A stretch of DNA of 64,000 nt from an uncultured bacterium (GCA_965372795.1 CBDVDR010000008.1:32001-96000), one strand, 5' to 3'; counted from the first letter of the stretch, positions 4,877 to 10,797 are shown. Notes: generated by a model not told the origin, from the letters alone. Program-made: numbers and translations.

Positions 4877-5644
4877 ATGAAACCATATACCAGATTTGCA
4901 GAAGTTTACGATTTAATGGGTGCAGATCGTCATTCAATCAAAATGGTAAAATATTGCCAGAAGATTTTTGAAAAATTTAAAATTCATCCTGTTAACGGAT
5001 TGGATTTATGTTGCGGAACAGGAACAGCTATCAATCATTTATCAAAATTGGGAATAATTATGTCGGGGCTTGATCAAAGCCCGCATATGCTTGCCGTTGC
5101 CGCTAAAAAACTTAAATCAAAAAAAATTAAGTTATATCAAAAATCACTGCCAAAATTCAAACTGCTCCAAAATAATGACTCAACCAAAATCCAGCAATTC
5201 GATCTGGTCACCTCGTTTTTTGATTCGCTTAACTATTTATTAACAGAAAAAGATTTACTGGCTGCCTTCAAATCGGTTCACAAACATTTGAATCCCGGAG
5301 GATGGTTTATTTTCGACATGAATACTCAGGAAGCGTTAAAATATCTTTGGGATGAACATGTCTATGCCGATGCCAAAGATGATATCGCCTGGGTTTGGAA
5401 AAACGAATACCTTCCCAAAGAAAAAATGGCTCTGTGCCATGCTACTTTTTTCATTCAGGTTGGAAAAAAATATGAGCGGTTCTATGAAGTACACAAAGAA
5501 CGAGCCTATCCAAACAGCAAGATCAAAAAGATGCTTCGTGATGCAGGATTTCAGCTAAAAGGATATTACAACTGCTATTCATTCAATCCGGCTGATAGAG
5601 AAACCAACCGCTTTTGTGCAATTGTTAAAAAGAAAAGTAAATAA
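4877..5644 (+). CDS. Class I SAM-dependent methyltransferase
   Basis: FAEVYD, LDLCCGTG, DSLNYL, LNPGGWFIFD. Confidence 0.9.
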   Translation: MKPYTRFAEVYDLMGADRHSIKMVKYCQKIFEKFKIHPVNGLDLCCGTGTAINHLSKLGIIMSGLDQSPHMLAVAAKKLKSKKIKLYQKSLPKFKLLQNNDSTKIQQFDLVTSFFDSLNYLLTEKDLLAAFKSVHKHLNPGGWFIFDMNTQEALKYLWDEHVYADAKDDIAWVWKNEYLPKEKMALCHATFFIQVGKKYERFYEVHKERAYPNSKIKKMLRDAGFQLKGYYNCYSFNPADRETNRFCAIVKKKSK

Positions 5645-5650
5645 TTTAGT

Positions 5651-5667
5651 AATCTGCGACCGCAGAA
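5651..5667 (-). promoter_or_regulatory. Candidate bacterial SECIS hairpin for the FmdB UGA
   Basis: TCTGC/GCAGA stem with GGTC loop 18-21 nt after the UGA; resembles E. coli fdhF SECIS apex GCA-GGUC-UGC. Confidence 0.55.
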
Positions 5668-5669
5668 AA

Positions 5670-5879
5670 TCAGGACGCTCAGGAAAATCCCGAACCACAA
5701 CTGGCGGCGCCACAAGGTGCCTGATAAGACTGTGAATTAGTTGATGCGGCAAAAGTAGACAATAATTTTTCTACCCGACCAGAATTACATTCCGGACAGT
5801 TGACAGTTTCATCGGAACTCATCGAAAGTTCTTCAAACTTATTATCACAGTCACTGCATTTATATTCAAAAATTGGCAT
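5670..5879 (-). CDS. FmdB-family zinc-ribbon protein, probably with C-terminal selenocysteine (...CGSGFS-U-AS)
   Basis: MPIFEYKCxxC...CPxC motif. Track stop TGA at 5679-5681 is followed by GCG TCC TGA and hairpin TCTGC-GGTC-GCAGA. Ends at 5679 if UGA is a plain stop. Confidence 0.85.
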
Positions 5880-5888
5880 TTAATCTCT

Positions 5889-6068
5889 CTATTTCTTGTC
5901 AGTTGTCGACATCACCAAACCGGCGAAGAACCCCATCGAGGAAGCCAGATAAGGGTTGCACATTAATCGTCAGGTTGATCCAAAAGCATTATAGAGTACC
6001 GATAAACCAAAGCCGGCTAATGCACCTCCGGCTGAAAACAGTATAAGTCTTTTAGCATTTATTGCCAT
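5889..6068 (-). CDS. Small 2-TM membrane protein (DUF6132-like) with in-frame UGA, candidate selenoprotein (59 aa)
   Basis: Own translation MAINAKRLILFSAGGALAGFGLSVLYNAFGST-U-RLMCNPYLASSMGFFAGLVMSTTDKK; SD AGAAGGA; fills the gap between DUF302 and FmdB genes; TGA at 5970-5972. Confidence 0.72.
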
Positions 6069-6097
6069 GTTATTTTTGTCCTTCTAATAATATCCTA

Positions 6098-6484
6098 TTA
6101 TTCTACGGCTTCAGACATAACCTTCTTCAATCTTTTCTCAACCTCGGAAGCTAACTCATCTAACCCAATTTCCGGCATCATCTGTGAAATCATTTCAGGA
6201 CGACCAAGTGTCATGATCGTTTTGCCAGATTCAGTATGAACAGCAATTTTACAAGGCATGAACAATGCTACGTTGATATCTTTTTTCAGAGCTTCATGAG
6301 CAAAACCGGCATTACACATTTCGATAATAACCAGAGGATCGCGAGAAAACCCTTTTTCTTCAAGAGTCGCCTGAACATCATGCACCGCTAAAACCCGAAA
6401 CTGATTTTCCACGCACAAACGCTGAACCTCGGCAATAACCCTGTCAAAAGGTTTATCCGTTTCTAATCTGTATCCAAATTCCAT
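6098..6484 (-). CDS. DUF302 domain protein
   Basis: F.VLAVHDVQATL, IIEMCN, LFMPCKIAV. Confidence 0.88.
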   Translation of the reverse strand: MEFGYRLETDKPFDRVIAEVQRLCVENQFRVLAVHDVQATLEEKGFSRDPLVIIEMCNAGFAHEALKKDINVALFMPCKIAVHTESGKTIMTLGRPEMISQMMPEIGLDELASEVEKRLKKVMSEAVE

Positions 6485-6548
6485 TTTATTTCTCCATCTA
6501 TCATTTTACTATCCATATATATTTAGATAGTAAAGTTATATAAATGAT

Positions 6549-6962
6549 TCACACAATTTCATAACTTGTGATAATTTTACCGATTTCTTTAACCGTCTGA
6601 CTAACGACACAGTACTTATCTTCCGACAGCTCAATAGCTTTGGCAAGTTTGTCAGGATTAATATCCTCGCCGGATGCTATAAATTTTATTTCAACCGTAT
6701 GAAAAGGTTTGGGATAATCATCGTTTTGATGACCGCTCAATTCGATTTCAAGTGAGGTGAGTTTTTGTCTTTGTTTTTTTATAATCTGCACCACATCTAT
6801 CCCGGCACATCCTGCTATACCATAAAGCAATAATTCGGTTGGCTTAAACCCGGCTTCTGATCCTCCTGCTGATTTGGCGCCATCGGTAATTATTGAATGG
6901 CCAAAAACATTGGTACCTTCAAATTTCAACCCGCCCGACCATTTCATTTTTACCGTTAACAT
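6549..6962 (-). CDS. OsmC/YhfA family protein
   Basis: GFKPTELLL, GCAGIDV, LSEDKYCVV; start moved to ATG 6962 after SD GGAG. Confidence 0.9.
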   Translation of the reverse strand: MLTVKMKWSGGLKFEGTNVFGHSIITDGAKSAGGSEAGFKPTELLLYGIAGCAGIDVVQIIKKQRQKLTSLEIELSGHQNDDYPKPFHTVEIKFIASGEDINPDKLAKAIELSEDKYCVVSQTVKEIGKIITSYEIV

Positions 6963-7022
6963 ATATTCTCCATCGCAGTTAATTTTTTTTATAAATATAT
7001 GTCTATTCATCAAACAGTCAAA

Positions 7023-9155
7023 TTAAAGTTCTTTTAACTGAATTTTGAACTCTTCCAAATTTGTAACGGGTAAATTACAGACTGAATTTCGACAAACATA
7101 AACTTTTACCGACCCATCAGTTGATTTTCTACCTTCCAGTAATGGCAGCGATAATTTATTATTCCCATTATCAACTGCGATAATTTTATTTGGTATAAAC
7201 TTTGAATATAATTCCTTAATAATTTCATCCCGACTACTGTTATCTCCAACAATAACGATTTCAATTTTATCGTTAAAATAATAATCAACTGCAAACAAGG
7301 CCGAAGTCATTCGATTCGGTGAACGTTGAATTTGACCGGAAATTGCGTCGAGGGCTCCTTTGGCAATTTCCAGATATTTTGCATCATCAGTCAATCGGTT
7401 AATTTTTAAAAGATTCGCTATCATGTACGATCCGGGTGATGGAATGGCGCCATCGGATTCTTCTTTTGGTCGATAGATTAAATCAGTCTGTCCATCAGGA
7501 CGAAGATAAAATATATATTTTTCATCAATAAACAGTTCCGTCGCAGTCTCAGTTAGCTCCATAGCAAAATTCAACCATTTATGATTATTTTCCTGATCAC
7601 TTTCAAAAAGATTCAATAATCCACTGATATAAAAAGCATAGTCCTCAAGAAATTGTTCTTTGGTATGTTTTCCTTCTCGGTAAGCATGAGTCAGTTTTCC
7701 ATCATCATACAATTCATCTTTTACAAAGTTGGCATTTGCAATTGCAGCCTCGAGATATTTTTTATCGCCGGTAATCTGATACCCCTTACAAAAAGCGGTA
7801 AGTGCTAAACCGTTCCACGAAGTCAATTGCTTATCATCGGTCAGGGGCCGAACTCTTTTTGATCGGGCTTCAAATAGTATATCACTTCCCTTTTGAATAA
7901 ATTCATCAAAATTATCAATCTGGTTATCGTTTTTAAATCTGATAGATTCTAAGGAAAGGTTGAGAATATTTTTGCCCTCAAAATTTCCACCCGGTGTAAT
8001 ATTATAATATTTTGCAAAGGGTTCAAATATTTCTTCACCCAGTAAATCCTTCATCTCGTTATAAGTCCAGACATAAAATTTACCTTCTTCCCCTTCACTG
8101 TCAGCATCAAGGGCGCTGTAAAAACCGCCGGTCTTGTCAGTCATCTCTCTTAAGATAAAATCAAGAGTTTCAGTTACAACATTTAGATACACTTCGTTTC
8201 CGGTAATTTGATAGGCTTCGACATATACCGGTACAAGCAAGGCGTTATCGTAAAGCATCTTCTCAAAATGAGGAACCAGCCATTTTACATCGGTTGCATA
8301 GCGAGCAAAGCCGCCGCCGATTTGATCATAGATTCCCCCGAATGCCATCTCTTTTAAAGATTTTTCAGCAGCCTGAAGATATGTCAAGTCACCGCTGGAG
8401 CGATAATAGCGAAGGAAAAGAGACAGTTCCAAAGAATGTGGAAATTTCGGTGCCTGCCCAAACCCGCCGTCAATGTGATCGAAATTATTCATGAGAACTT
8501 CCGCACCCCGTTTTATCATACCTTTGGAAAGCATCGTTGTTCCGGTTGGCGCCAGGATTCTACTTGAAACTTGTTTGAAAATATCATTTGAGGATTTTAT
8601 AATCTGATCTTTACTTTCTTTATAAGCCAGACCAATTTCAGTTATCAATCTTTTAAAGCCCGGTCGACCATAGCGATCATCTGGCGGGAAATAGGTTCCG
8701 GCAAAAAACGGTTTAAGGTCAGGAGTAAGGAAAACTGACATCGGCCATCCACCGTGCCCGGTCATGGCTGTTGTAAATGACATATATATTTCATCAAGAT
8801 CAGGCCTCTGCTCTCGATCAACTTTGATTGAAATAAAATTAGCATTAAGCAAGGCGGCTATTTCTTCGTTTTCAAATGACTCTCGCTCCATGACATGACA
8901 CCAATGACAGGCAGCATAACCGATAGAAAGAAAAATCGGTTTATCTTCATTTTTCGCCCGATCAAGTGCGTCTTCACCCCACGGATACCAATCGACCGGA
9001 TTATGTGCATGAGAAAGCAGATAAGGTGAGTTTTCATTTATTAGATGATTAGTATGTTCATAAATATCGTTTGATTCCATTTCATTTCCTTTATCTTTAC
9101 CGCAGGCAATTGAGTTTAATAATATTAATGCGGCATAAATATATAATCTTTTCAT
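7023..9155 (-). CDS. Thioredoxin-domain protein, YyaL/SSP411 family
   Basis: [44 protein letters not shown]. Confidence 0.95.
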
Positions 9156-9336
9156 AATAAACCTTTAACTGTAAACTAAAAATCTTGTCTATCATAACCA
9201 CGTACAAAACCAAAAGGTCCGCAATAAATTATAATAATAATCAATATTGGAGAAAAACAGTCAATTTTAGGTTGAAATTAAATGGTTACAGAAACGATTT
9301 TAAAAAAGTCTTGTGGGATACTCAGGGAAAACTGTT

Positions 9337-10797
9337 TTATTTAATATTAACTAAGCTGTTTAAGAAGCCTGAAAATTTGATTCGAATAAATGGTAAGCTT
9401 TGGTTTTCATCTTCGATATGGGAAAAGTTTGAAATATGTTCAAGCCCGGTTTCAACATCACAGTAAAAATGATCGGCAATAAATCCTTTGACGCCTACTG
9501 AAACATTGAATCTTTTTTCAACCTGACCCGTTGGAAACGGTTCCTGATAATCACCGTCAATATCCATCCAGGGTTCGCTCCACTCAGCCGTTACTCTGCC
9601 TTCCCCCTGACGGTGATACGATAACAATAAGATGCCTTCAAAGCTTTTCGTGAACCATCGCATAACTTTAAGACTATAGCGGTCGTAATCATTGCCCAGC
9701 GCTCCGCCAATCAAATTACCATCGTTTAAATAACGATTACGATCCAAAACCTGATTAAAAGTCCAGTTGTTCACCCGCGAATATTCAGCTTTGATATCTA
9801 CCAAATCAAGAACATCAACGAAGTAGGCTCCGGCAAGATATCCGATTTCATTCGGTTCCTGATCGCTTTGGATCTCGTTGTCAATTTGGAAATCGTCAAT
9901 AAGCAATTGTCCGTAAAATTTTATACCGGCTTGAGGTTTATAAGAAAAATCAAATCCAAGAAAAGTATTATCATTTCGATTTTTATTCAGTTGATTGGAG
10001 TGGTACATCATTATGGGGTTGAGATAATAAAATTCTACATTTCTCCCAATCCCTCCGAAAACAACGGTTTCAAATATCCCTAAACGAAAATTATCTGAAA
10101 AATCAATATCAAGCCTGTGCCCGGCGAAGTATCTGTCTTCATTTTCCAAATTTGAATTATGCAATACTTTCGTTCGATCAAGTTGTGCCAAACGATATGA
10201 AAAAGTCAGTCGCCCATATTTCCAATTATACTCAAGCCCGTCCATCGTAGTTGAAGGTGCTAATAATAATGAGTTGCGTTCTCCCCAGAAAGATGCAAAC
10301 CGACCGAGCATAATTCTAAAATTATTCAATTTAAAAACGGCAATGCTGTTTTCCACTTTGCCGGCGAAACCGCGCCATTTTTTTCCGGTGTAATTTGGAT
10401 CTTTCGCCTTTTTTTCATCGAGAACAAAATTACTAAAGAAAAACAAATTCTTTGAAGGAGAAAAAGATAAACCTCCTCGAATATTTTCAATACCGTTCCC
10501 ACGAGATAATTTAACCGACCTGAAATCCTCGGATAATATTGCAAAAAGATTTATGCTCTCACTTTTCGGTTTAAAATATTCTTCAAAGGGCGAGATTGAA
10601 AAATCTTCGCGGTCTAAAGTATAAGGACCAAGTTGAAAATCATATTTATCAAGCGACAATGCATCAAGTCGTTCAAAACGATCATAGAGAAAATCAAACT
10701 CACTAATGCCTGCCGGTAGTACAGCTGCTTGAACAGCACCGATTAATATAATAGATAGAACTAAAAAATAGAGTAGTTTATAAATTGAGAAGCGCAT
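9337..10797 (-). CDS. Capsule assembly Wzi-family outer-membrane protein
   Basis: Signal peptide; RYFAGHRLD, LGIFETVVF, YLNP, FYGQLLIDD; polysaccharide gene context. Confidence 0.75.
   Translation of the reverse strand: MRFSIYKLLYFLVLSIILIGAVQAAVLPAGISEFDFLYDRFERLDALSLDKYDFQLGPYTLDREDFSISPFEEYFKPKSESINLFAILSEDFRSVKLSRGNGIENIRGGLSFSPSKNLFFFSNFVLDEKKAKDPNYTGKKWRGFAGKVENSIAVFKLNNFRIMLGRFASFWGERNSLLLAPSTTMDGLEYNWKYGRLTFSYRLAQLDRTKVLHNSNLENEDRYFAGHRLDIDFSDNFRLGIFETVVFGGIGRNVEFYYLNPIMMYHSNQLNKNRNDNTFLGFDFSYKPQAGIKFYGQLLIDDFQIDNEIQSDQEPNEIGYLAGAYFVDVLDLVDIKAEYSRVNNWTFNQVLDRNRYLNDGNLIGGALGNDYDRYSLKVMRWFTKSFEGILLLSYHRQGEGRVTAEWSEPWMDIDGDYQEPFPTGQVEKRFNVSVGVKGFIADHFYCDVETGLEHISNFSHIEDENQSLPFIRIKFSGFLNSLVNIK

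Follow-up and report, generated by a model that had tools for sequence, protein, structure and literature searches.

We describe here, on the minus strand of a 64,000-nucleotide stretch of DNA from an uncultured bacterium (hereafter the window), a short gene that very probably encodes a genuine selenoprotein, the UGA at 5972-5970 being decoded as selenocysteine (Sec) by the SelA, SelB, SelD and tRNA-Sec that the genome itself carries. There is strong support for reading 6068..5889 as a single gene whose 59-residue product has two membrane helices. Sequence comparison gives strong support to two further statements, namely that Sec fills a single loop position that is Cys in all Cys-type relatives, and that the family is a divergent branch of the DUF6132 superfamily lying below the Pfam threshold. 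Taken as a whole, the reading that we favour, with reasonable rather than full confidence, is that of a Sec-decoded two-helix protein acting as the membrane redox centre of the gene string in which it lies.

Under translation table 11 the frame is broken into pieces of 32 aa and 24 aa, and reading through the TGA gives 59 aa, MAINAKRLILFSAGGALAGFGLSVLYNAFGST-U-RLMCNPYLASSMGFFAGLVMSTTDKK (MAINAKR…GST-UGA-RLMCNPY…DKK). Only the 32-aa N-terminal piece of the window gene is present in a large protein collection. The original prediction, made from the sequence alone, was of an unannotated reading frame filling the gap between the DUF302 and FmdB genes, preceded by a Shine-Dalgarno motif and giving a first helix, GST-TGA-RLMCNPY and a second helix on read-through. 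Frame and translation agree with it, Pfam identifies the expected neighbour on either side, and the Shine-Dalgarno-like motif can be read directly in the sequence (Table 1). The gene is part of a same-strand string in the order DUF255, OsmC, DUF302, selenoprotein gene and FmdB zinc ribbon, with gaps of 9, 64, 29 and 9 nt; the DUF255 gene is the first of the string and ends 9 nt before OsmC, while the zinc-ribbon gene begins 9 nt past the stop of the selenoprotein gene. A promoter and terminator scan of 5500-9400 returned nothing above shuffles. On the opposite side of the string lies a convergent methyltransferase gene (4877-5644, plus strand). It has a weak match (E 0.009) to TehB, the tellurite/selenite methyltransferase family, and its counterpart in locus L033 matches at 2.7e-7; generic methyltransferase domains outscore TehB.

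Table 1. Positions of the probable selenoprotein gene, its signals and its string neighbours in the window
Feature	Position	Strand	Basis or remark
Read-through ORF, 59 codons + TAG stop	5889..6068	minus	two-helix membrane protein, probable Sec at residue 33
Start, in-frame and stop codons	ATG 6068-6066; TGA 5972-5970; TAG 5891-5889	minus	sequence reading
In-frame UGA, candidate U33	5970..5972	minus	conservation of the TGA column and alignment to the invariant DUF6132 Cys
SECIS-like hairpin AACCCUUAUC/GAUGGGGUU	5923..5961	minus	MFE -10.6 kcal/mol
Shine-Dalgarno-like AGAAGGA	6079..6085	minus	10 nt 5' of the ATG, by sequence reading
FmdB-family zinc ribbon, 66 aa, downstream	5679..5879	minus	Pfam Zn_ribbon_8, E 9e-16
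DUF302 protein, 128 aa, upstream neighbour	6098..6484	minus	Pfam DUF302, E 7.6e-16
OsmC-like protein, 154 aa, further upstream	6549..7013	minus	Pfam OsmC, E 7.7e-19
Thioredoxin-like DUF255 (Thioredox_DsbH), 710 aa	7023..9155	minus	Pfam PF03190, E 6e-77

The in-frame UGA is a constant feature of the family. When the read-through peptide was compared with six-frame translations of 61 genomes (the window's own and 60 family- or order-level relatives), exactly one TGA lay within the match (E <= 1e-3) in 35 genomes, and the match was uninterrupted in 2. Across the 30 loci that were fetched, the same aligned column holds TGA in 28 and TGT, a Cys codon, in two (L033 and L036), with TGG in none; natural full-length representatives likewise have Cys at this point. 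The 30-locus alignment gives the loop consensus G-S-T-U-x-[LIM]-M-C-N-P-[YW] between two helices, with G15, G19, G30, G46 and G50 invariant and conservation of 90% or more for C37, N38 and P39. Two Sec forms, L037 and L038, have no Cys at +4 and carry one 5-6 residues upstream, with x-L-T-S-N-P after the Sec. Thus U-x3-C is not universal, being absent from 2 of the 28 Sec forms, and Sec is used in both loop architectures; the two genes (L037:1492-1671 and L038:1489-1668) have the DUF6132-type arrangement C-x4/5-U-x-L-T-S-N-P and lie inside the same operon.

The distribution was widened with a strict DNA motif (GxT-TGA-xx-MCNP) scanned over 185,579 species, one genome each. It matched 47 times, comprising 45 complete two-helix family ORFs, many of them in genomes identical to ones already among the family- and order-level relatives, and 2 chance matches. 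By record title the 45 divide into 16 Zixibacteria/GN15, 10 "uncultured Ignavibacteriales" MAGs, 14 unclassified, 3 Myxococcota/Myxococcales, 1 Vulcanimicrobiota and 1 Fischerbacteria. The overlap with those relatives indicates that the lineage of the window is evidently Zixibacteria-like. The family occurs in about 35 of the 61 searched genomes of the window's order and, going by record titles, in at least three other phyla. A narrower alignment used as query matched 2 metagenome loci.

Selection on the frame continues past the TGA. Pairwise identity after it is 0.63, 0.72 and 0.44 at codon positions 1, 2 and 3, a pattern indicating a coding frame under purifying selection; together with the invariance of G46 and G50, this periodicity answers the question, raised with the original prediction, of whether the C-terminal half is conserved. 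The codon is an ordinary stop elsewhere: of the long ORFs, 7 of 43 in the window and 327 of 1954 genome-wide end in it, so that a changed genetic code is excluded; it even serves as terminator of the same small gene in 7 of 30 relatives. The machinery for Sec, on whose presence the prediction depended, was found complete in the genome: SelA (425 bits), SelB with its wing domain, tRNA-Sec (68.9 bits; anticodon tca by ARAGORN) and SelD (389 bits), the last carrying one in-frame TGA. This selD gene, situated outside the window (G000:C4:204174-205094; locus L052), reads …SCAG-TGA-ASKL…, i.e. it is itself Sec-containing, and a hairpin with a GGUU loop follows its TGA. Among the 61 genomes SelA was found in 58, the three others being 85%, 56% and 93% complete, and it was found in all five holders examined from other phyla.

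What stands in place of the UGA was further judged from protein collections. With U replaced by C, a profile built from the 30 sequences matched 288 of 1.84 billion representative proteins at E <= 1e-3, and the best 150 of these 288 were sorted by loop type. Among these best 150, 41 have G-x-x-C-x3-C-N-P, i.e. the same loop with Cys, and 97 have the DUF6132 loop G-C-x2-G-x-C-P-I-T-S-N-P; 6 are N-terminal stubs that break off at GST and 3 have W at the Sec column, and of the remaining 3, P0103 and P0134 are DUF6132-type by eye and P0122 lacks Cys at that column. P0003, one of the three with W, equals the read-through of L077 letter for letter, except for W in place of U; the W forms thus come from gene callers that translated TGA as Trp. 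Homologues thus have TGA or Cys at the site, as a Sec codon would predict, the three W entries being traced to gene-caller translation. In public protein collections W was seen at the Sec site in P0003, P0007 and P0036, and stubs of 32-46 aa ending at GST in P0002, P0067, P0081, P0132, P0137, P0148 and P0150; W forms and GST stubs together are a systematic annotation error in these collections.

Kinship with DUF6132 had been suggested from a shared loop motif. The DUF6132 motif given there proved accurate, the consensus of the 97 DUF6132-type representatives being FIGCxxGxCPITSNPY, and 95 of these 97 match PF19628, compared with only 13 of the 41 CxxxCNP-type proteins (E <= 0.01). A profile-profile comparison (hhalign) of the family with the DUF6132-type set gave 99.4% and E 9e-22 over 63 columns. 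In it the Sec column falls on the second, invariant Cys of the DUF6132 G-C-x2-G-x-C, so the UGA does stand where a Cys had been expected. Single sequences remain below detection: the window protein has no Pfam match at E <= 1, the best Cys orthologue, L033, reaches 14.2 bits against a PF19628 gathering cut-off of 23.2, PF19628 scores above its cut-off in none of the 61 related genomes, and five members searched against NCBIfam release 20.0 gave no match at E <= 10 beyond noise. A C-terminal thioredoxin domain is carried by 5 of the 41 CxxxCNP-type homologues. These fusions of the CxxxC-N-P module are P0021, P0055, P0085, P0112 and P0118, with a CxxC site in P0055, P0085 and P0118.

A SECIS-type hairpin after the UGA was a further element of the prediction. 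The stem-loop exists (Table 1), starting 12 nt after the UGA with its apical loop about 25 nt after it, but for the window sequence alone it is no better than shuffles: the z-score against dinucleotide shuffles is -0.32, with 67 of 200 folding as well, and against synonymous recodings it is -0.91 (p 0.20). At family level, the 51 nt after the UGA in the 28 Sec forms have a mean z of -1.74 against synonymous recodings (p < 0.05 in 15 of 28), compared with -0.50 (3 of 28) for the 51 nt before the UGA of the same forms as an upstream control. In a second set of 30 further loci, p < 0.05 was reached in 10 of 30 against 9 of 30 for the control, the mean z being -1.35 against -0.65. A hairpin of at least 5 bp with its loop starting 16-37 nt after the UGA, mostly at 20-27 nt, is present in 51 of 59 distinct Sec forms. 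Its stem draws on the CCC within the Asn-Pro codons and on a Gly codon that lies 13 positions beyond Sec; this Gly codon is GGG in 14 of 28 forms, compared with 2 to 4 of 28 for three upstream Gly codons. The inner stem varies in sequence yet remains complementary, as judged by eye, and the base after the UGA is C in 23 of 28 Sec forms. A G at the loop start is a feature of the bSECISearch model, and only 23 of 59 loops have a G among their first two bases. RNAalifold found no consensus structure on an ungapped nucleotide alignment, and column-wise covariation was not above shuffles (59.9% of cells paired in the intended register, 52.8% at a one-column offset and 40-60% across slides), a failure due in part to the stem register, which shifts between orthologues. 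Rfam returned no SECIS family match, and only a sub-threshold match to GAIT. Overall, the family-level comparisons are mixed, though for the most part favourable, and a SECIS hairpin in the family as a whole is consistent with them but not proven by them.

The surroundings of the gene are conserved to different degrees. A zinc-ribbon gene lies downstream in all 30 loci, with a gap of at most 19 nt in 28, and in 39 of the 45 motif-scan members; DUF302 precedes the selenoprotein gene on its own strand in 22 of 30 loci, OsmC lies upstream in 24 of 30, and the zinc ribbon is itself followed by a Thioredoxin_2/DsbH-like gene in 5 of the 3-kb loci. Six members, from other phyla and not in the Zixibacteria-type operon, are flanked by unrelated genes (GGDEF regulator, PEBP, cytochrome c peroxidase with H-NOX, HAD hydrolase), and hence the operon argument holds for one lineage only. 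Turning to individual loci, the ten MAGs titled "uncultured Ignavibacteriales" (L062, L063, L068, L070, L076, L077, L082, L092, L095 and L097) have the zinc-ribbon gene downstream, and eight of them also have OsmC and DUF302 upstream, as in the Zixibacteria-titled MAGs; several are family-level relatives of the window, and the titles may be mislabelled. In one locus (L035:424-1383) an inserted ORF of 320 aa, which matches no Pfam family, separates DUF302 from the selenoprotein gene. DUF302 itself was considered as a possible TGA-bearing selenoprotein and was ruled out, tblastn finding intact DUF302 genes.

The zinc-ribbon proteins (5679-5879 and its orthologues) have a Ser/Gly-rich linker and a tail that usually bears C-x(2-5)-C and ends in G-F-[ST]. 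FmdB-family proteins are listed as UxxU selenoproteins in other organisms (PMC13188914); here all four ribbon Cys are Cys. A predicted complex of a natural Cys-form peptide with its own zinc-ribbon neighbour scored 0.00, below the mark, which speaks neither for nor against a contact.

As for topology, the N-tail has on average 3.33 K+R residues, the loop 0.10 and the C-tail 1.10, and an AF2 model (mean pLDDT 69) has helices at 5-29, 33-36 and 39-55, the one-turn helix 33-36 starting at Sec. Judged solely by the positive-inside rule, a basic N-tail and a loop without charge mean that both termini are cytoplasmic, and we infer that the U-x3-C loop lies level with, or a little short of, the outer face of the inner membrane. 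Each helix carries a GxxxG pair, which suggests that the hairpin packs tightly or forms oligomers. The thioredoxin fusions would put thioredoxin on the cytoplasmic side, so that a direct contact between thioredoxin and the loop would need a re-entrant hairpin rather than a spanning one.

Sec almost always stands in for a catalytic or redox Cys. Its use here therefore marks the invariant loop Cys of DUF6132 as the working and likely active residue. The partner Cys is at +4 in the window branch and at -5 in DUF6132 proper and in the two exceptional Sec forms, the Sec/Cys position being invariant throughout; Sec in place of an invariant Cys, a partner Cys on either side and the thioredoxin fusions all speak for a selenol/thiol pair with redox activity. 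In such a pair the selenol and the Cys at +4 would cycle between a reduced form and a selenenylsulfide. Its partners would be the thioredoxin-like and OsmC genes nearby, and the two-helix protein would be the membrane redox centre of a string (DUF255, OsmC, DUF302, FmdB) concerned with thiol redox or peroxide stress. Given a genuine selenoprotein, we would put the chances of this redox-centre function at about even.

The weakest of the other explanations for the UGA treats it as an artefact or a sign of decay, arising from a sequencing or assembly error or in a pseudogene of a Cys-type DUF6132-like gene, and its probability is next to nil. TGA was found at the column in 28 of 30 loci and then in the 45 motif-scan genomes, in independent assemblies, with the downstream frame intact and under purifying selection; kept in dozens of assemblies, it makes a read error irrelevant, and a one-off error or decay cannot give such a pattern. 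Insertion of a standard amino acid at the UGA, be it Trp or Cys through a near-cognate tRNA or by a local change of the code, is very improbable. This reading could draw on the W of three database proteins and on the C that follows the UGA in most Sec forms, UGA followed by C being a leaky context. The W forms are explained by a table in which TGA is Trp, as the pair P0003 and L077 illustrates, while TGA is a normal stop in the genome, none of the 30 loci has TGG at the site, and Cys at this position in every Cys-type relative is what classically marks a Sec site. We consider it equally hard to believe that no recoding takes place and that the UGA ends a 32-aa single-helix peptide, with a 24-aa peptide made by re-initiation at the AUG at 5963-5961, three codons on, and the two assembling. 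An ATG does occur at U+3 in the window and in 22 of 28 Sec forms, and the 32-aa piece is what gene callers report, yet the remaining 6 of 28 have CTG, ACC, ACA, ATC, ATA and ACC there, and hence no usual start. Moreover, the internal AUG has no SD-like motif before it, the Cys-type homologues run as one unbroken chain whose Cys stands precisely at the TGA column, and the Sec machinery is found in every complete holder genome.

Accepting Sec decoding, one may still ask whether the protein does redox chemistry. The Sec/Cys pair could instead bind a soft metal or chalcogen (Hg, Cu, As, selenide, persulfide, thiosulfate), with glycine-zipper oligomers passing the bound species along the membrane or through it, as in MerF, MerT or YeeE; we hold this to be rather unlikely, if a serious competitor. 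It would fit the GCxxGxC motif of DUF6132, which we take to resemble metal-binding loops, the invariant GxxxG pairs G15/G19 and G46/G50, the matches of several relatives to glycine-zipper Pfam models and the TehB-family matches of some neighbouring methyltransferases mentioned above. Small or membrane selenoproteins of this sort are on record, a 2026 inventory listing a putative MerT (C/SxxU), YeeE/YedE (GUxSG) and the SO_0444 Cu/Zn efflux transporter (UxC) (PMC13188914), and the passages available of another study place DUF302 genes in sox sulfur-oxidation clusters of other bacteria (PMC5037610). Against it, the conserved string has no metal or sulfur transporter or resistance gene, Pfam detects no similarity to Mer proteins, and the thioredoxin fusions and OsmC indicate thiol redox chemistry more directly. 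Going beyond the redox centre that we prefer, the protein could also be the smallest integral-membrane selenoprotein so far, a glycine-zipper hairpin of 55-65 residues forming oligomers with a ring or pair of selenols and thiols inside the membrane. Such a minimal transmembrane relay would pass reducing equivalents, or chalcogen or metal, between cytoplasmic thioredoxin-type partners and the periplasm, like a miniature CcdA/DsbD or MerF/YeeE. This is a speculative proposal, and we think it improbable; if true, the DUF6132 superfamily in its entirety would be a class of membrane thiol relays that has so far gone unrecognised.

Concerning novelty, Table 1 of a 2026 inventory counts 119 prokaryotic selenoprotein families and subfamilies (PMC13188914), and this table lists neither DUF6132 nor a two-helix U-x3-C family. 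BSepDB, in the passages available, covers 111 known families, and the nine new families of deep-Sep differ, as its available passages describe them, from the window family. Literature searches returned only an unrelated paper for selenoprotein with DUF302 and, for Zixibacteria with selenoprotein, only one on genetic code expansion in marine Deltaproteobacteria. On this basis, i.e. its absence from Table 1 of the inventory, from the NCBIfam models and from those passages on BSepDB and deep-Sep, we regard it as a new family of selenoproteins. As such it extends the bacterial selenoproteome, is useful for annotation and opens up DUF6132, on which a full-text search found no real paper. It also ties selenium to a widespread and unexplained string of a DUF255 thioredoxin-like protein, OsmC, DUF302 and an FmdB zinc ribbon.

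Among known systems, DUF6132 (PF19628) is the closest. Like those of the window family, its proteins are some 60 residues long, with a GxxxG in each of two hydrophobic helices and a short loop that closes with N-P-[YW]; the invariant loop Cys aligns with the Sec. The difference is in the loop: the window family has Sec and a partner Cys at +4, whereas DUF6132 has Cys in place of Sec and its partner Cys at -5, so that, set against G-C-x2-G-x-C-P-I-T-S-N-P, the window loop G-S-T-U-R-L-M-C-N-P lacks the -5 Cys and has Cys rather than Ser at +4. The nearest ESM-Atlas clusters of a natural Cys homologue are also DUF6132 (score 0.87), which serves as a lead only. The CxxxC-N-P Cys homologues (P0004-P0012, P0055, P0085, P0118) share the loop motif, length and helices and are the true Cys counterpart; they differ in having Cys for Sec and, in 5 of 41, a C-terminal thioredoxin that is absent from the window protein.

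Further away, a putative MerT (PF02411, C/SxxU), YeeE/YedE (GUxSG) and TsoA (LULAxC, NF045695) appear in Table 1 of the inventory (PMC13188914). They resemble the window protein in having Sec in or beside a membrane segment or, in TsoA, the U-x3-C spacing, but their motifs and sizes are different and neither NCBIfam nor Pfam indicates a sequence relation. By analogy, these three may be possible functional counterparts of the window protein. The transmembrane thiol relays of the CcdA/DsbD type have a Cys pair next to Pro in short helices, are served by thioredoxin and are much larger, with six or more helices. The thioredoxin fusions among the relatives of the window family suggest that a comparable partnership with thioredoxin may exist here.
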